A DNA stretch of 33,091 nt from a virus. Of the stretch, positions 21,589 through 33,071 are shown in pieces; the first letter of the stretch is position 1, and each line of letters starts with the position of its first letter. The DNA lies in the UHGV virus genome UHGV-0073014; one strand, 5' to 3'. The notes below the pieces were generated by a model. It was not told the origin of the DNA and searched no databases. It was given only the letters and a program-made list of their open reading frames with translations. The position numbers were made by a program, and so were the translations under genes.

Positions 21589-22650
21589 TTAATATTCAAA
21601 ATTATTTTCTTCAATAGAGAACTCAATCCCTCGGGATAACTTATCAATATTCACATCAAATGCGATATCTGTTAATTCACCATCCTCGATTTCATACATA
21701 ACTTCAATTTCAATATCGAAACTAATCTCTTGAACTTCAGTTCGTGTGGTTGTCTCCATTGGAATCATTACTTTATCTTCGCTATCCCAATACCCATTAT
21801 TAAAGTCTGGACCAGAAACAGTAACTTCAAAATCTACAGAAACAGAGAAGGTCGCTAGACAATAATTATTGTTAATCTTAATTATTGATGGTTCAAAGTC
21901 ATCAATATTGACGACTTCAAATGAATCCAATTCAGCGTCTTCCCAAGTTGAAACGTTATATCCATCGGCATCATTGAGTTGGGCAATTACGTCCGCTCTT
22001 ATGTCTTCACGTTTGCTTTCGATAAACTGCATCAATTTATTACTTAATTCGTTTGTATGCGTATTGTATTCACCTAGAAACTTATCAAGTGAATCAATTT
22101 GATGAAGATTGTTTTTACCATCACAATAATTTTTTAAGTCACTATCCTCAGAAATGATATACACATCTTCATCATTAACAAATCGCTCTACCGCAGCTAA
22201 AGTGATTGCATCAGGAAACTCACTTTTTTTCTTATTTTGCCCAAATGGTGGTTCTTTGCCAAAGTATTTATCTAAAACCTCATTAAGATCTATTACTTCT
22301 ATTGTAGCTAATTTGGCGTGACATCCTTTCAAAAAATCATCAAAAACTTTTTGTGCTGCTTCGTGAATTTCATGTTCGTTAAATTGCTGAAAAAAACCAT
22401 GGAGCGGTCCATTATCAATACTATTCAAAAGCCTAGCTTTTCTTTGTACTGTGTTTATAGCCTGCAGAGCATCCTTTATTGATTCCTCTATTTTACCTTT
22501 TACTTCTCTCTCTACAACTGTAGTTGTAATTAAGACTAAATCACCTTTCGCACATAATTCATGGAAAGCTTTAAATGCTACCCCCTCAAAATGAAGACCA
22601 GCCTTTACGTACGTTTGTGTGTCAATAAATACCTTATTTGTTTTAAGCAT
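21589..22650 (-). CDS. PIN-like-domain protein with acidic beta-rich C-terminal domain; candidate defence/cargo gene
   Basis: 353 aa; N-terminus KVFIDTQTYV...LVLITTTVVEREVKGKIEE...EFPDAITLAAV...DVYIISEDSD fits a PIN-like nuclease pattern (conserved D, E, D); AT-rich; sits between portal Q and cos; candidate sigma70 promoter TTGATT-N17-TAATCT upstream. Confidence 0.6.
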   Translation of the reverse strand: MLKTNKVFIDTQTYVKAGLHFEGVAFKAFHELCAKGDLVLITTTVVEREVKGKIEESIKDALQAINTVQRKARLLNSIDNGPLHGFFQQFNEHEIHEAAQKVFDDFLKGCHAKLATIEVIDLNEVLDKYFGKEPPFGQNKKKSEFPDAITLAAVERFVNDEDVYIISEDSDLKNYCDGKNNLHQIDSLDKFLGEYNTHTNELSNKLMQFIESKREDIRADVIAQLNDADGYNVSTWEDAELDSFEVVNIDDFEPSIIKINNNYCLATFSVSVDFEVTVSGPDFNNGYWDSEDKVMIPMETTTRTEVQEISFDIEIEVMYEIEDGELTDIAFDVNIDKLSRGIEFSIEENNFEY

Positions 22651-22775
22651 ACTAATCCTAATAAGTTTTAAGATCCGCTACAATTGTTTATGTTTATTTT
22701 TTATCAATAATCATACGTAGTTAAGATTATCCATGTCGAAAAATTAAATCAACTTCAATTTATCCTTAAGCGCGC

Positions 22776-22794
22776 GCTCGTATCCCCGCCACGC
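22776..22794 (-). other. cos-like cohesive-end sequence
   Basis: Minus strand reads GGCGTGGCGGGGATACGAG, close to the P2/186 19-nt cohesive end (GGCG(A/T)GGCGGGGAAAGCA-), recalled from memory; GC-rich patch within AT-rich cargo. Confidence 0.6.
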
Positions 22795-22843
22795 CTGCCC
22801 GCTTTGTGTAGTGGTTTTCATGCACCTGCATGACATAAGCAAA

Positions 22844-22863
22844 AGCCCGCCAGCTCTGGCGGG
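22844..22863 (-). terminator. Rho-independent terminator for minus-strand transcription from the HNH gene
   Basis: GCCCGCCA-GAGC-TGGCGGGC followed by TTTTGCTT on the minus strand. Confidence 0.6.
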
Positions 22864-22977
22864 CATCAGCAAAAACGATCCTCAAACGATCATGCGATTT
22901 CATGCGGCATAGACATGCGTTGGCAAAAATGCACGAAATACTCAGCTTATAGGAAATGGTCTTTTTCCAACCTCCAG

Positions 22978-23697
22978 TTAGCCAAAGCAGAAACCAATAT
23001 TGCAATTTGAAACTCCACAGTTGTGAAATTGATGTGGACCGACTCTTAGCTTGTGTTCGTCTCCTACAATCCGAGTCCCCTTAACCAACATATCTAATCT
23101 TTCCACAATCAATCTTTCAGGCGCATCAACTTTAATAATTAAACGAGGACCTTTCCTTTTTTCTATAATAGTTATTCTAGGACCGACAACCTGAACATCC
23201 CAATGCCTTGCACTACATACCCACTCATTCTTAATTAATTCAAGATTAACAATACCTTGACTATCGTAAAATTTACCCGAAATAAGAAAAGCATTATTTT
23301 CTTTTTCAATGGTTAACAATGGCTCATTTTGAAACATTATTGGTACAGTACAGGATTCAAACGTCGCACCACCAAATATTATTGTTGGATGCCTATCAGA
23401 AAAGTCCAATATATCGGCCACATTCCCTTTTTGTAAGGCTGCAGGAGATTCCATTGCTTTAATGATTTTCTCTTTAGAGTAAAGACGTTTCGTTACTTTC
23501 GCATGACACGTAGGACAAAGTAGTGCTATTGCATTTGGAGAGTGCTCCTTTGCATCAGCGTATGTGGGAATTACATGCTCATACTCAACAATGGGAGAAG
23601 CACAAACAACGCAACCGAAGCCACAGCGCTGCCTTACCTCCAGTTTTACAGGTTCAGGAATTGTTCTAGATAACCCATGCTTGTTAATAGTTGTCAT
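22978..23697 (-). CDS. HNH-endonuclease-domain protein with unknown C-terminal domain; candidate defence gene
   Basis: 239 aa; CGFGCVVC...EYEHVIP...NAIALLCPTCHAKVTK fits the HNH zinc-finger nuclease motif; AT-rich; SD AAGGTAAGG before the ATG; lies between the SOS operon and cos. Confidence 0.65.
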   Translation of the reverse strand: MTTINKHGLSRTIPEPVKLEVRQRCGFGCVVCASPIVEYEHVIPTYADAKEHSPNAIALLCPTCHAKVTKRLYSKEKIIKAMESPAALQKGNVADILDFSDRHPTIIFGGATFESCTVPIMFQNEPLLTIEKENNAFLISGKFYDSQGIVNLELIKNEWVCSARHWDVQVVGPRITIIEKRKGPRLIIKVDAPERLIVERLDMLVKGTRIVGDEHKLRVGPHQFHNCGVSNCNIGFCFG

Positions 23698-23750: not shown

Positions 23751-23819
23751 AACGCCTCGCACAGCTCGTTGTTCAACCTTGCTGACGCCAGAAGCAAGTT
23801 CAGACGCCAGCAACGTTTC

Positions 23820-24053
23820 TTAATGCAGCCAGCTGTCGTCTTCCCACACCTTCTGCATAATTTTCATCACTTGTTTTCTTTCTTCGTCCAGTTGCAGTCC
23901 GGTCAGTTCCACACCGTTAGAGCTACCTTTACGGATACGAATTACCGTTTTGGGATACAGGGGGCGCAGATTGCGGTAAAGCTCGGATTCAAGGGCGTCC
24001 AGGGTAGACTGGCTAATCTTCTGCTCTTTATCGATCATTATTTCAATGCGCAT
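23820..24053 (-). CDS. DinI-family protein
   Basis: About 77 aa starting MRIEIMIDKE; resembles E. coli DinI (MRIEVTIAK...); SD GAGGTG upstream. Confidence 0.75.
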   Translation of the reverse strand: MRIEIMIDKEQKISQSTLDALESELYRNLRPLYPKTVIRIRKGSSNGVELTGLQLDEERKQVMKIMQKVWEDDSWLH

Positions 24054-24063
24054 AAAAGTCACC

Positions 24064-24252
24064 TCAGCTGATGACATCCATTGAGCGATTGTATTCGTGG
24101 GTTCTGATTTTCGCCATGAGTTCATCAGTCAGTTCAGAAACCCACTGCAAAGCCAGCCCCTTCTCTTCATCACTACACTCACTAGCCGCTACAAGCTTAA
24201 GAAAAAAATCAATGCGCTGGAGCTTCAAAGACTCCAAAAAATAGTCCTGCAT
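24064..24252 (-). CDS. small SOS-controlled protein, possible Tum-like antirepressor
   Basis: 62 aa, strong SD AGGAGG 5 nt before the ATG, directly downstream of a LexA box; the Tum assignment is by genomic context only. Confidence 0.5.
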   Translation of the reverse strand: MQDYFLESLKLQRIDFFLKLVAASECSDEEKGLALQWVSELTDELMAKIRTHEYNRSMDVIS

Positions 24253-24294
24253 CTTTCCTCCTATGACACCAAAGCAATACTGTATACATAACCA

Positions 24295-24310
24295 CTGTTT
24301 ATATTTACAG
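24295..24310 (-). promoter_or_regulatory. LexA (SOS) box overlapping the -10 of the promoter of the small-ORF/DinI operon
   Basis: Minus strand CTGTAAATATAAACAG (CTGT-N8-ACAG), with TTTACA upstream and TATACT overlapping the box as -35/-10 candidates. Confidence 0.75.
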
Positions 24311-24404
24311 TATATAATAATCTTACTGATGTAAAACGTTTTTTTACGCTGATCAGCCTGATATGCCTGGTATTATTAAGAGCACGAATTGTTAACCCGC
24401 GTAA

Positions 24405-26777
24405 TTAATACAGGTTTCGCCACTTATCATCTTCCTGCAAACGCTGGTTCCGATAGAAGATACGCAGGCCTGCTCCTGACGGAATACTGCCGCCGCGAAG
24501 CAGTAAATCGACCTCTTTCTCGCTGCCATCAAATCCCCTGGACTTCAGTTCATACACGAGCTGCTGTCGCTGATGATCTGTAATTCGCTGTTTGTAGTCT
24601 TTACGCCGTTTCGGTTTCACCAAGCGTAACCTTGCTGCCAGTTCCCGGCGCTCTTTTTTGCTCATACTGTGCAGGTAATCGTGCAACTCCTTGTCATCCA
24701 TGCGGGTGATATCCGTTCTGGTATCTCCATCAGCTGATTTGTCTTTCCCTTGTTGGTACAAATTTTCAGCAAGGGGACAGTTATTGCCACGAGTCCAAGG
24801 GGCGCAAGCGCCCTGGTCGGCTGCCGCCTCCTGAACATCAACGGCCTTACGAACCATTTTCCACTTCACGGCATGAGTGCAGATCTTGCCCTCTGCAATA
24901 GGTGACCAGATGCCATAAATACGAATGCCGTGATCGCCATAGGCGGTCGGCTCTTCGTTGATTTCATAAGCGGTTCTGATGAGGTGATATTTGCGGGGAA
25001 CCAGTACGCCGCCCTGCTTCATGATGTAGGTGGCAAAACAACCAGCATCAGCAGCAGCCAGGATGGCATCAAGGCGCGGGTTATCCAGTACCGGCGCACC
25101 TGCTTTTTTGTCCCCCTGTTGCCTTGCCGCCTGACCAGCCAGCAATCGCAGTTCACGGTAAGCCTGACGCCCCGGAATGCCAAAGAAGCGGAATTGCTGA
25201 ACACGATGCAGAGACGCCCAGGCATTAACGTATTCAGCATTATCACGCAGGGATTTCCCCGTTTCCTTGCTGATCTCGCCAGCCAGACCACGCCCGTCAA
25301 TGTTCTTACTGATGTATTTCGCGATGTAGCTTGTTGGCGTACCTTTGCGCGGGTTAATCAACTCAGACTTAAAGCGCGGCCCAGTGTTATTGCCCAGTTC
25401 CTCGCGGTCTTCACGGATGGCAAACTTACGCAGTAATGCAGTGATGGCGCGGCGGTCTTTTTTGCGCATAAAACACAACAGGTGCCAGTGAACTGTACCG
25501 TCATGATGCGGCTCAGCCACCCGCACGCCATACCACCGCAATCCGGCTTTGTGCATCGCCTTACGAAATGTAGCAAACATGCCGACCAGATAATCACTGC
25601 TTTGTCTTACCGTCGCATTTGTCCAGGTCGGGTTGGGCCTGCCATTATTTAGCGTGGAATGGAAACGTGACGGACAGGTGATGGTGTAGAAAACGGCGCA
25701 GTCACCGCGCATTTCCGCGATAAGCTCCAGGCCTTTAACACAGGCCATCATCTCATTGCGGCGATGCGCAGGGTTGCTGCTGCTGGCGTTTACCACATCC
25801 TCCATGTCCAGCGTGTCGCCGTCTTCGTTCACCAGTTCATGAGAACGAAAAAACTCCAGCGACTTACGGCGCTGCTCACGTTTATGCATCACGGCTTCAT
25901 AGCTGACATAGGGAGATGCTTTTTTGCTGACCAGGCAGACAGCACGCAACTGCTCTTCCCGCCATTCGCAACGCATCTTCCATAATTTCCGGTACCACCA
26001 GTCAGCGCACAACATACGCGCCAGCGAACCCGGAATGAGTTCATAGGGCACGGGTTTACGGCGGTTTCTTTTCCGGCGGAGTTGCTCAAACGCAGGCGGG
26101 ATGACATCCAGACGCAGGGTTTCCGCTGCCACCTTTTCCCATGTCTTGCGGATTTCTTCTGGCTTAACGTCATCGGTGACATACAAATCGCCACAAGCTG
26201 CATCAAGGCACATGCTCATATGCGCAGCTACCAGGGTGGACAGGCGTTTCACCTGATCCTGACTCATTTCAGGCAGGATCAGCAGGCCGTCCAGCCCTTC
26301 ATGGCTTGCCATAAAGCGAAAAGAAGTGGATAGCTGACAGTCGCGTACATGCTCCAGCCGTTCCAGACATGGCTTAATCGTCTCACGCAAATAGCGGGAA
26401 TAAGCCTTTGGCCTGCCCAGGCTGCTGAAGTATTCAATACGTTGCATCAGCGGCTTGCTGATATGGGAAGGCTGGGCATTGACGTCCGCCAGAATGACCA
26501 TATCTGGATTAAAACGCTGCTGCTCATGCGCCAGCTTTGCCCGACTAATGAGCTTATCCTGCTCCATTTCGCGCTGGACAGGATCACGGGATTCATTAAA
26601 GAAATAACGCTCCCAGACCTGATCGCTCAGTGCCTCGCGGCGCAGCTGTTCCTGCTCGTTATCGGCAGCGTACAGAGCGATCAGGTTTGAAAGCGCAGAA
26701 ACTGAAGATTGCTCTTCTGTCTCTACGTAAGGATTGATTGCTTTTTTCTCAGCATTCCAGGAATAGCTGTAGTTCAT
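24405..26777 (-). CDS. A: replication initiation protein A (rolling-circle nickase, P2 gpA-like)
   Basis: About 790 aa; start taken at MNYSYSW (26777), overlapping the stop of the upstream gene. Confidence 0.85.
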
Positions 26778-27607
26778 TACGCAATCTCCAGTTCGAGCTG
26801 TGAAGGCTGCAAACCATTCGACAGCCAATCAGAAACTGAAGGTGGGCGAACAGCTTCAATTGCACCTTTTAAAATTGCGCAACGGTTTTTCAGAATGACA
26901 GCTTTCAGCTCCTTTTCCGTCAGATTGCGCGAATACTCAGCCTCCTGAATAGCCCGCGTCAGCTCAGGATATTTGCTATTAAATTTGGGGACATTGCAGG
27001 CAAGATTTGTACTGTCGGCAGTCGCCAGTGGGTAATTTCCCAACACACGACCGTCAAGCATGCGCAAACCATGAACAGCTGTTTTGAAATTGTGTCGGCA
27101 ATAAATTGCTTCAAAAGCGTCCTGCATACGACGATGCCAGTGCGCAGTTCTGATAGCCGCATATTCACCAGACGATCCAAAGCAGACACGAGGCCATTCA
27201 CGACATAGCTCGATAAGCCGATCGATTGACTCGTGCATATGCCAGACGGGAGTTGCCTTCCCGTAGAACATTTTCGGAACTTCGTTTATCAGGGCATCAT
27301 TGTCACGTTCACCTCCGTCCACAACATCAGGAATGACAAAAAAAGCGACCTTAGGATGGTGGTAATAGTTCAGGAGCCATTTATAAAAATCACTCCAGTT
27401 AATTTTTAGCCCACGCACCCATGCAGAAAATGCGCCGTTATCAATGCCGACGACCTGAGCGTGCTGAATGGACGCCGCAATCTGATCTGGTCGTACATAG
27501 GAGACGAAAGCGCCAGCTCCGCTCACCGCAATACGATGAACGTCGCCAGCACTTCCCCAGACAGGCGTCCCATGGAAATGATGAATTCCGTGGTGCATTT
27601 CTTTCAC
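26777..27607 (-). CDS. hypothetical protein, possible TGT/DpdA-like DNA-modifying enzyme
   Basis: 276 aa; local motifs PVWG...[12 protein letters not shown]...[10 protein letters not shown]...AVHGL loosely resemble the tRNA-guanine transglycosylase barrel (PVGT, DSGGF, GVG); translationally coupled to dam. Weak, unverified. Confidence 0.3.
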
Positions 27608-30378: not shown

Positions 30379-30954
30379 GTGACCATGAATTTGGAGAAAG
30401 GCGGACGAGGCGCTATAGAGCGCATGGTAGAAGCTTATGGATTCAAAACTCGACAGGCGTTGTGCGATCATTTAGGAATCTCTAAAAGTACACTCGCCAC
30501 ACGCTACATGCGTGACTCATTCCCAGCAGAATGGGTAATCCAGTGCGCCCTTGAAACGGGCACCTCGCTTAATTGGCTCACAACCGGACATGGTTCAAAG
30601 CAAACTTCAGGTAATACAAATACTATGGAAGTTGCTAAATATGTATTATCTGATGGTGCCTTGCGTGAAGACGGTTTTTATATTTTTGATAAGGGGTTTC
30701 TACCCTCTACGTTTAAAAAACCTTTTGTCATCACAGATAACAATTCTGAATTTATTTGTGATAAAGAATTTGATGATATACGTGACGGTAAATGGGTAAT
30801 AAGTATTGATGGCGAAATAACAATCCGCGACATTACTCGTTTACCCGGTGGAAGAATCTTCGTTGAAGGTGGAAACAGAGCCTTCGAGTGCAAGATAGAA
30901 GATGTTGAAATAATTGGGAAAATTATAAGTTTAACAATTAAGTACGTTAGGTAA
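30379..30954 (+). CDS. cI: CI-like immunity repressor (186 CI family)
   Basis: 191 aa with N-terminal HTH; EAYGF and CALETG..L.WL.TG.G motifs recalled from 186 CI. Confidence 0.8.
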   Translation: MTMNLEKGGRGAIERMVEAYGFKTRQALCDHLGISKSTLATRYMRDSFPAEWVIQCALETGTSLNWLTTGHGSKQTSGNTNTMEVAKYVLSDGALREDGFYIFDKGFLPSTFKKPFVITDNNSEFICDKEFDDIRDGKWVISIDGEITIRDITRLPGGRIFVEGGNRAFECKIEDVEIIGKIISLTIKYVR

Positions 30955-30969
30955 TACCGGGAGGAAACT

Positions 30970-31161
30970 ATGCTTGGTAAGGTATTTTTTGTGGTTTTAT
31001 CATGCTCTTTGTTATTAAACCCACTAACTACCTATGCTAAAAATTATCCTTGTTCTGGGAAAAAGGGAGGTGTCTCTCACTGTACCTCCGATGGAAAGTT
31101 CGTTTGCAATGATGGAACTATTAGTAAATCAAAAAAAATCTGTACTAAAAACTCGCGATAA
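30970..31161 (+). CDS. small secreted Cys-rich protein (cargo between cI and int)
   Basis: 63 aa; signal peptide [23 protein letters not shown]; four Cys in the mature part; SD GGGAGG upstream; AT-rich. Confidence 0.5.
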
Positions 31162-31347
31162 ATTTTGCTTTTATATCTGCGCCTAATATAACAATGAGCC
31201 GCAGGCTAACCGCAAAAGTCACATACTCACATAGCAAAAAATAGCCAACTTCATTATGGCTTCAGTGAGATGTATGGTCGCAGGATTTCATACATTGACA
31301 CTGGTTATACATACAGTAAAAATGCTCTCTATTGGAGGGCATTTTTT

Positions 31348-32400
31348 ATGGCAGTACGAAAACTCACCACAGGAAAATGGCTTTGCGAATGTTACCCCGC
31401 CGGACGTAGTGGACGCCGTGTGCGTAAACAATTCGCCACCAAAGGCGAAGCTCTGGCTTTTGAGCGTCACACGATGGAAGAAACCGAAGCAAAGCCCTGG
31501 CTGGGCGAATCAGTGGATCGTCGGACATTGAAAGACGTGGTTGAGCTATGGTTCAAACTACATGGTAAATCTCTAACCGCTGGGCAGCATGTCTATGACA
31601 AATTGCTGTTGATGGTTGATGCTCTGGGCAATCCTCTTGCAACCGATCTCACCTCTAAAATGTTTGCCCACTATCGAGATAAACGCCTGACAGGCGAGAT
31701 CTACTTCAGCGAGAAATGGAAGAAAGGAGCAAGCCCGGTCACCATTAACCTGGAGCAAAGCTATCTAAGTAGTGTTTTTAGCGAACTATCCCGTCTGGGC
31801 GAATGGTCGTATCCGAACCCACTGGAGAACATGCGAAAATTCACCATCGCAGAAAAAGAGATGGCATGGCTTACCCATGAGCAGATTGTTGAATTGCTGG
31901 CTGATTGCAAACGTCAGGACCCAATTCTGGCACTGGTAGTTAAGATATGCTTAAGCACAGGCGCACGCTGGCGTGAAGCCGTAAATCTTACCCGCTCACA
32001 GGTGACCAAATACCGAATTACCTTTGTCAGAACGAAGGGGAAGAAAAACAGAAGCATCCCTATCAGTAAAGAGCTTTACGAAGAGATCATGGCGCTTGAT
32101 GGGTTCAATTTCTTCACAGACTGCTATTTTCAATTTTTATCCGTGATGGAAAAAACGTCTATCGTGCTCCCTCGCGGTCAACTGACACACGTTCTGCGCC
32201 ATACGTTTGCGGCGCACTTCATGATGTCGGGTGGAAACATTCTGGCCTTACAAAAAATTCTTGGACACCACGATATAAAAATGACTATGCGTTACGCACA
32301 TCTGGCACCGGATCATCTGGAAACGGCGCTCCGTTTCAATCCTCTGGCAACGCTGCCAAATGGCGACAAAGTGGCGGCAGCGGTTGGCATTACCCCGTAA
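31348..32400 (+). CDS. int: tyrosine integrase
   Basis: C-terminal catalytic signature R...HxLRHT...Y (HVLRHTFAAHF, MRYAHL); start at MAVRKLTTGKW preceded by GGAGGG. Confidence 0.9.
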   Translation: MAVRKLTTGKWLCECYPAGRSGRRVRKQFATKGEALAFERHTMEETEAKPWLGESVDRRTLKDVVELWFKLHGKSLTAGQHVYDKLLLMVDALGNPLATDLTSKMFAHYRDKRLTGEIYFSEKWKKGASPVTINLEQSYLSSVFSELSRLGEWSYPNPLENMRKFTIAEKEMAWLTHEQIVELLADCKRQDPILALVVKICLSTGARWREAVNLTRSQVTKYRITFVRTKGKKNRSIPISKELYEEIMALDGFNFFTDCYFQFLSVMEKTSIVLPRGQLTHVLRHTFAAHFMMSGGNILALQKILGHHDIKMTMRYAHLAPDHLETALRFNPLATLPNGDKVAAAVGITP

Positions 32401-32504: not shown

Positions 32505-33071
32505 CTACCCTGCAACCCTCTCAACCATCCTCAAAATCTCCTCGCGCGATAGCGGCTTACGGTCGGTGACAAAATGCAGCGTCATCCCCTCAATAAACGC
32601 ATCAAGCGCGCGGGCGGTTCCGGGTTCAAACCATTGTTCGAGCGTTTGCTGACTGCGCTGCATCCAGTTTTGCATTACCGTTTTTAATAGCGGTTTTCGG
32701 CTAGCCAGCGCGTAGAGCTGGTACATCAGCTCCATATTATCCGGCGTTGCAACCTGTGAGCTGTAGATCATATCGGTGATAGCCTGGCATGCGCCTTGAG
32801 CATCACTAACATCGCTAAAAAATGCCTGATATTGCCGGGACATAATCTCAGTAAAACTGCTGAACGCCTCCAGCAACAACTCATCAATTCCTGAAAAATA
32901 GTAGGTCATCGATCCCAACGGTACCCCGGCAAGGGTAGCAATTTTGCGGTGCGTAACAGCATGTATTCCGTAAAGTTTCACCGCCTCCAGCGTGGCCTGG
33001 ATAATTTTTTCTCGCCGTTGCGGATCGTTAGCGCGACGCATGTCATTTCCTCTCTCTGCAATTGTGTACAA
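32505..33071 (-). CDS. TetR-family transcriptional regulator, likely host gene
   Basis: 188 aa with N-terminal TetR-type HTH ([20 protein letters not shown]); ordinary GC content, outside the phage gene order. Confidence 0.75.

Follow-up and report, generated by a model that had tools for sequence, protein, structure and literature searches.

In phage 186, a single protein of 146 aa, Tum, unites an antirepressor half and a DinI-like half, and internal starts also give products that consist of the DinI part only. The 186 record states that full-length Tum 'inhibits CI DNA binding', whereas the DinI-only forms are merely labelled 'modulates SOS induction'. According to the papers citing that work, physical binding of CI by an antirepressor is known only for 186 Tum. 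In Fels-2 and PSP3, tum is split by a stop codon, and the upstream gene is given as the antirepressor (PMC3121763); for PSP3 this assignment goes back to a personal communication quoted second hand. The PSP3 record itself describes tumA as 'similar to 5' end 186 tum; UV induction of prophage' and tumB, in the same arrangement, as 'similar to dinI and 3' end of 186 tum'. Mutants in lexA are rescued when Fels-2 is lost (PMC12626290), and the Fels-2 tum homologue has been linked to the lethality of lexA-null alleles. In the E.coli HS prophage DuoHS, an in-frame deletion of tum and the lexA(Ind-) mutation G85D each abolish lysis and the formation of virion foci after mitomycin C (PMC12055606).

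The window analysed here is the whole 33,091-nt stretch of the virus genome UHGV-0073014, given as one strand 5' to 3'. Directly downstream of the replication gene gpA (24405-26828, Pfam Phage_GPA) it contains a tum module, all elements of which lie on the minus strand. We consider this module very probably to be the SOS induction operon, in its split tumA-tumB form, of a P2-like (Peduoviridae) prophage of the Fels-2/DuoHS type. For comparison, one genome per species was scanned, which gave 52 related loci in Enterobacterales. The gpA gene lies upstream of tumA in nearly all of them. TumA is encoded in 52/52 loci but the DinI-like gene in only 21 (two of these copies are shortened), the other 31 having tumA alone. 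Thus gpA, the LexA box and tumA form the conserved core, and the DinI-like gene is accessory.

The promoter of the module is the equivalent of p95 in 186. It starts with an A-tract (24339..24345), which presumably acts like an UP element, directly 5' of the -35 hexamer TTTACA (24330..24335). The -10 hexamer TACTGT (24307..24312) follows 17 nt past the -35 and is at the same time the left end of the LexA box. The annotated p95 is composed of TTCACA, 18 nt and TACTGT inside the LexA site; the -10 of the window is identical to it in hexamer and arrangement, and the -35 has the same spacing from the LexA box. In an alignment of 17 relatives, the upstream A-run and the T/T/A/C/A columns of the -35 are invariant. 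A generic promoter scan of the window did not report the tum promoter, and its -10 agrees with the consensus at only 3/6 positions. The initial annotation had spoken of a good sigma70 promoter, which is too generous by consensus; a perfect LexA box overlapping the -10, a 62-aa ORF with a strong Shine-Dalgarno sequence and a DinI-family gene with one of its own were all present as it had described them.

The LexA operator (SOS box 1) is the 20-mer TACTGTAAATATAAACAGTG at 24293..24312 (minus strand), which agrees with the consensus at 17/20 positions. Its core, CTGT-N8-ACAG at 24295-24310, is the sole perfect match in the window. The bare pattern is not significant (one match versus 0.44 expected). 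For the full 20-mer, none of 100 shuffles gave a match with at most three mismatches to the LexA consensus, and sites of at least 15/20 are expected 0.03 times per shuffled window versus three observed. A LexA box of at least 15/20 precedes the tumA homologue in 48/52 loci, compared with about 1% of random 160-nt windows from the same loci. Judged by these counts, the predicted operator at 24293-24312 is beyond chance. It contains the -10, and the SOS box would overlap the -10 and start site, an arrangement that marks modules of the 186 Tum/PSP3 TumA type.

A second stretch, CAGTGGTTATGTATACAGTA at 24278..24297 on the minus strand, overlaps box 1 by 5 nt and reaches 15/20. Its right half is perfect and its left half reads GTG instead of CTG. 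In 15/17 loci of the Fels-2 type, the right half (CAG) is kept within an otherwise variable 5' UTR. The other TumA clade, PSP3 and 186 have a single box. We regard this stretch as a candidate second, imperfect LexA-like site.

The first cistron, tumA (24064..24252, minus strand; named 'tum' in DuoHS), encodes 62 aa and is preceded by AGGAGG (24257..24262, minus strand), a Shine-Dalgarno sequence which lies 4 nt before the ATG and is nearly invariant in the relatives. Neither Pfam nor NCBIfam nor PADLOC contains a family for the ORF, and pairwise BLASTP detected no similarity to 186 Tum or PSP3 TumA. At the profile level the picture is different. A profile of 30 diverse relatives, collected by searching 1.8 billion representative proteins exhaustively, aligned to 186 Tum without gaps, residues 4-44 to 4-44, with an hhalign probability of 94.4% and an E-value of 9.4e-8. 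E7, R13, C26, A34, L35 and E40 of TumA are identical in 186 Tum with the same numbering; E7, R13, C26 and E40 make up most of the nearly invariant positions of the ORF family, whereas A34 and L35 are residues of the window protein. Against PSP3 TumA alone, the profile gave a weak match (E 0.005, probability 7.5%). The PHROG families connect the three proteins as well: phrog_698 is the family of the 62-aa ORF (E 3.6e-38), which further matches phrog_8554 and, as the family of PSP3 TumA, phrog_1993, and residues 1-69 of 186 Tum match phrog_1993, phrog_8554 and phrog_698, the last at 6.4e-6. At the profile level, the ORF is a homologue of the first 44 residues of 186 Tum, which belong to the part outside the DinI domain. 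The initial annotation had proposed a Tum-like antirepressor from context, and this proposal now has homology behind it.

TumA is 98% identical to STM2728 of Fels-2. AlphaFold2 predicts a two-helix hairpin (helices 2-23 and 28-61) with a pLDDT of 88.5. A structure search of the PDB with this model returned only generic helical hairpins with E-values above 2, and a sequence search of the PDB found nothing. With a median dN/dS of 0.07 at a dS of about 1, where synonymous sites are near saturation, tumA is under strong purifying selection.

The second cistron, tumB (23820..24053, minus strand), starts 10 nt past the tumA stop and encodes a DinI-family protein of 77 aa. Its Shine-Dalgarno sequence GAGGTGA (24059..24065, minus strand) overlaps the TGA stop codon of tumA, a distance that fits close coupling. 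The protein matches Pfam DinI (PF06183) over the whole profile (1-63 of 63) with an E-value of 6.6e-23 and 81.3 bits versus a cut-off of 24.2. It is 41% identical to residues 71-145 of 186 Tum, the C-terminal half, 78% identical to TumB of PSP3 and 100% identical to the Fels-2 protein. Against the host DinI equivalog NF007893 it scored 42.7 bits, below the cut-off of 111, and PADLOC gave no match for it. By these comparisons it is a phage paralogue of the TumB type and not chromosomal dinI. Binding to RecA filaments and modulation of LexA or UmuD cleavage are probable activities, judging from the family and from the note in the 186 record. The dN/dS of tumB is 0.09. A terminator-like hairpin that covers the tumA stop and the tumB Shine-Dalgarno sequence (24058-24075) was dropped because it is not conserved in the relatives, and an Rfam search of the window found no family.

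The presumed target of TumA is encoded at 30385..30954 on the plus strand. This ORF is 32% identical to 186 CI (E 8e-38), matches PDB entry 2FJR (E 3.3e-31) and contains the Pfam domains Phage_CI_repr (E 2.7e-33) and Phage_CI_C (E 2e-28). Peptidase_S24 reached 16.7 bits, below its cut-off of 23.3. With the two CI domains present and S24 lacking, the protein is a 186-type CI, which agrees with the CI-like repressor that the initial annotation had placed at 30379-30954. Divergent from cI and adjoining it are an Apl-sized ORF and CII (Phage_CP76); hence tumA lies directly downstream of gpA in a genome with a 186-type CI/Apl/CII switch. NCBIfam has no family for CI, the Apl-like protein or CII. 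This CI has no functional S24 peptidase domain. The switch is of the 186 kind as well, in which an antirepressor is needed rather than RecA-mediated cleavage.

We propose the following course of events. In the lysogen, LexA would occupy the box that overlaps the -10 and start site of the promoter just downstream of gene A. After DNA damage RecA would become active, LexA would cleave itself and the tum promoter would fire. The first cistron would yield TumA, a 62-residue helical hairpin, which would inactivate the 186-type CI by binding, not by cleavage; direct binding is assumed here from the homology to 186 Tum. The early lytic promoter would thereby be freed, leading to Apl, CII, the replication genes, excision and lysis. 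The DinI-like protein from the second cistron probably acts on RecA filaments and would tune the SOS signal, as an accessory and not as the trigger. That induction requires tumA and a cleavable LexA has been shown in the literature for the 98%-identical module of DuoHS. Deletion of the small ORF and a lexA(Ind-) host are checks that the initial annotation had suggested, and both abolish mitomycin C induction in DuoHS (PMC12055606).

If TumA binds CI, the two proteins might be expected to vary together. In 42 loci, the type of TumA did not covary with the type of CI (Mantel rho 0.01-0.06, p 0.13-0.42), be it with the whole repressor, its N-terminal or its C-terminal domain. One TumA cluster (at least 70% identity, 26 loci) occurs together with 16 CI clusters, two CI clusters are shared by the two major TumA clades, and TumA (dN 0.05-0.1 at dS about 1) is much better conserved than CI. 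This is unlike a tightly co-evolving pair of binder and target. These findings would suit a trigger mechanism in which TumA acts via a conserved third party, either another protein of the switch or a host factor, so that CI is inactivated only indirectly. We consider this improbable. TumA is homologous to just that part of 186 Tum which is absent from the shortened forms, and it is the full-length protein to which the 186 record ascribes the effect on CI. Moreover, the N-terminal DNA-binding domain of CI is strongly conserved (median identity 68% with many invariant residues, compared with 31% for the C-terminal domain) and could offer a common docking surface. Action of one antirepressor on several repressors has a precedent in the Gifsy prophages, whose antirepressors can act in trans on several repressors (PMC3121763). 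In the simplest reconciliation, the conserved N-terminal domain of CI would be the docking site of TumA, which would also explain the loss of DNA binding.

Since 186 Tum carries both halves in one polypeptide, the two ORFs could alternatively be the remains of a broken 186-type tum, that is a pseudogene, or a gene from which a fused Tum is made by frameshifting or readthrough. In the window, the 25 codons that precede the ATG of the DinI-like gene are indeed open in its frame, and the sequence GCG-AAA-ATC could allow a +1 slip. However, dozens of species have retained the split. The gap between tumA and tumB is 8-15 nt in 24 relatives and always contains a G-rich Shine-Dalgarno sequence for tumB, and all three frame offsets between the two genes occur. 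Upstream of the DinI-like gene, its frame closes within 1-14 codons in most relatives. Strong purifying selection acts on both halves, 31/52 loci have tumA and no DinI gene, and 0/66 representative homologues are fusions with the N-terminal TumA part. A broken or fused tum is thus very improbable. A programmed +1 frameshift at GCG-AAA-ATC was rejected, since relatives differ in the length of the gap and in the frame offset and mostly have no open DinI frame ahead of the gene. With two cistrons, separate Shine-Dalgarno sequences and 10 nt plus a stop codon between them, the window does not show the single-polypeptide form of 186; two cistrons together with the variable frame offset place it in the split tumA/tumB form.

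Which of the two cistrons triggers induction can be read from the deletion made in DuoHS. The primers used there fuse ATAGGAGGAAAG-ATG to TGA-GGTGACTTTTATGCGCATTG (PMC12055606), and these sequences map to 24250-24272 and 24044-24066 of the window, respectively. Hence the deletion in DuoHS takes out the 62-aa ORF, no more and no less, and spares the DinI-like gene. A reading in which the DinI-like protein does the inducing and the small ORF merely serves its translation, as a leader or coupling peptide, is scarcely credible: databases do name 186 tum products 'RecA filament binding protein DinI', one phage record names the DinI-like ORF 'SOS induction modulator' and the overlap of the DinI-gene Shine-Dalgarno sequence with the tumA stop codon would fit a leader, but removal of the small ORF alone, with Shine-Dalgarno sequence and ORF of the DinI-like gene kept, abolishes induction in DuoHS (PMC12055606), and the small ORF is conserved as a protein where DinI is absent.

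Beyond tumB the conserved module comes to an end. Its end is marked by a stable, GC-rich hairpin without a U-tract (23775..23817, minus strand) right after the tumB stop, and phages with other cargo resemble the window at the DNA level as far as about 23749 or only down to 23822. An HNH ORF starts 122 nt past the DinI stop, and no canonical terminator was found in the gap between them. The distance of about 120 bp and the missing terminator had already been pointed out in the initial annotation, and both hold; its hint that the HNH gene belongs to the operon is the one weak point. P2-like phages have a published defence hotspot in the interval from gpA to gpQ (PMC9122126). From the tum module to the portal gene Q, 85 different protein clusters were counted in 48 loci, and the combination of HNH and PIN_12 present in the window occurred in none of the other loci. 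The HNH and PIN genes belong to the hypervariable hotspot cargo rather than to the induction module. Transcription from the tum promoter may read through into this cargo. PADLOC had no match for TumA, TumB or PIN_12 and only a marginal match of the HNH protein to a type IV restriction enzyme, and NCBIfam contained no family for HNH or PIN_12.

A third LexA-like site was observed upstream of int, at 31299-31318 on the minus strand. It agrees with the consensus at 16/20 positions, fills the spacer that separates TTGACA (31294-31299) from an A-rich -10-like hexamer, and lies about 29-30 nt ahead of the start codon of int (ATG at 31348). DuoHS has the identical site. All 14 loci with this type of integrase keep TTGAC(C/A) and CTG(T/G)-N8-ACAG with a variable centre. 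In the same 14 loci the int Shine-Dalgarno sequence is contained in a hairpin with compensatory variants, and a T-run follows the hairpin in all but one (L052). Loci with a 186/Fels-2-type int, which abuts cI, are without the third site. The arrangement may constitute an SOS-controlled int promoter, with int being insulated from the cI transcript by the terminator-like hairpin. A narrow literature search found no description of an SOS-controlled int promoter.

The tum module was found in 1125/5426 complete E.coli genomes, where the small ORF is labelled 'hypothetical protein', and it occurs in many other Enterobacterales. The gene that decides on induction goes by 'hypothetical protein' (PGAP) or 'levan regulatory protein', and the names Tum and 'SOS induction modulator' are often attached to the dispensable DinI-like gene. 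With phrog_698 linked to Tum by profile homology and to the DuoHS deletion, the annotation can be corrected and the SOS-inducibility of P2-like prophages becomes predictable from sequence. There are also genomes with two or three such modules. We hold it possible, albeit rather doubtful, that TumA is a generalist antirepressor acting on the N-terminal domain of the CI family, that this type of prophage possesses a second LexA-controlled unit at int, or both; as far as found, neither has been described in the literature searched. If TumA were a generalist, an SOS-induced P2-like prophage could induce heteroimmune P2-like prophages in the same cell in trans. If they hold, the two properties would bear on cross-induction in polylysogens.

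Among the known systems, the SOS operons of Gifsy-1, 2 and 3 are LexA-controlled and combine a small antirepressor (GfoA, GftA) with a dinI homologue, and the likeness to tumA-tumB is one by description; their gene order is reversed, with dinI first, and the repressors belong to another family (PMC3121763). Phage 186 has the module at the same genomic position, with a LexA-repressed promoter whose -10 lies inside the box and with a CI target of the same type. It differs by its undivided Tum, by having only one LexA box and by orf97, which lies behind a partial terminator. PSP3 likewise has its two cistrons behind a LexA box that follows gene A. Its TumA is of a different sequence type (phrog_1993) that is related at the profile level only, and its promoter has the single box directly before the Shine-Dalgarno sequence.

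In Fels-2 of Salmonella LT2, the gene order after gpA is that of the window, with STM2728 and STM2726.1 in the places of tumA and tumB. The CI allele and the cargo of Fels-2 are different, and its int abuts cI. Apart from its cargo, DuoHS (tum ECHS_RS04495; Phollow study, Nat Microbiol 2025) is in essence the same element; there, 61/62 residues of TumA and 180/189 residues of CI (95%) are identical to the window proteins. The promoter DNA is 98% identical, with box 1 unchanged and the second LexA-like site differing at two bases of its spacer, and both prophages adjoin rcdA. They differ in the cargo between the DinI-like gene and the portal gene Q, which consists of two unrelated hypothetical proteins in DuoHS and of HNH and PIN_12 in the window. 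The module described here is therefore already known, and it has been characterised experimentally in a near-identical prophage, DuoHS.

Across 42 of the 52 related Enterobacterales loci (L005-L056) that were compared with the window, the sequence type of TumA, the 62-aa antirepressor, did not covary with the type of CI, the 186-type repressor (30385-30954); one TumA cluster was paired with 16 CI clusters. The N-terminal domain of CI is conserved (median identity 68%), whereas its C-terminal domain is not (31%). Taken together, the lack of covariation and the difference between the two CI domains suggest, from sequence comparison, that TumA is a generalist antirepressor aimed at the conserved DNA-binding domain of CI. 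Several genomes contain two or three tum modules, and if TumA is indeed a generalist, cross-induction in polylysogens would be possible.

Of the 52 loci, 31 have gpA, the LexA box and tumA but no DinI-like gene; in two further loci this gene is truncated, and the entire "VNDLFMESLALQRIEL..." TumA clade is devoid of it. The label Tum or "SOS induction modulator" is often given to the DinI-like gene instead of the tum ORF (24064-24252, minus strand). PGAP names the latter "hypothetical protein" in E. coli genomes, a name that it also bears in most phage records; UniRef and some Klebsiella phage records list it as "levan regulatory (domain) protein". The annotation gap concerns the tum ORF, the one that is experimentally required.

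Between the tum module and the portal gene Q lies a two-gene cargo (21589-23697, minus strand), consisting of an HNH gene (22978-23697; phrog_6544, function unknown) and a PIN_12 gene (21589-22650). The gpA-gpQ interval of P2-like phages is a known defence hotspot (PMC9122126). Among 48 related loci, which together hold 85 cargo protein clusters, the HNH and PIN_12 pair is unique to the window. PADLOC returned no system match for this cargo, and we regard the pair as a candidate uncharacterised defence pair.

The interval between cI and int contains a 63-aa ORF (30970-31161, plus strand) whose product has several cysteines and an N-terminus resembling a signal peptide; it matched no family. 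E. coli HS has the ORF as well, annotated as ECHS_RS23290. It probably represents a moron that is expressed together with cI.

Further downstream, in the putative int promoter region (31294-31350, plus strand; int, 31348-32400), the spacer between a perfect -35 hexamer TTGACA and an A-rich -10-like hexamer is occupied by a LexA-like box, CACTGGTTATACATACAGTA (31299-31318; minus-strand match 16/20). After it, upstream of int, come a terminator-like hairpin and a T-run, the 3' arm of the hairpin being the int SD. This arrangement is kept in all 14 loci that have the same type of int; the centre of the box varies, the hairpin shows compensatory variants, and the T-run is missing in one of the loci (L052). 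Judged from these sequence features, the arrangement may be an int promoter that is under SOS control and insulated from the cI transcript. The arrangement in E. coli HS is identical to that in the window, whereas 186 and Fels-2, in which int abuts cI, do not have it. The flanking host gene (32505-33071, minus strand) appears to be rcdA, based on its translation as judged by eye and on the fact that it neighbours int, as rcdA does in E. coli HS. If so, the prophage uses the same attachment site as DuoHS, the P2-like prophage of that strain.

The tum promoter itself contains a second LexA-like site (24278-24297, minus strand), which overlaps box 1, the LexA operator at the -10, by 5 nt at a centre-to-centre distance of 15 bp. 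Its right half is perfect and was kept in 15 of 17 Fels-2-type promoters; its left half reads GTG instead of CTG. Neither 186 nor PSP3 nor the other TumA clade has the second site. In this respect the promoter may be comparable to colicin promoters with their tandem SOS boxes.
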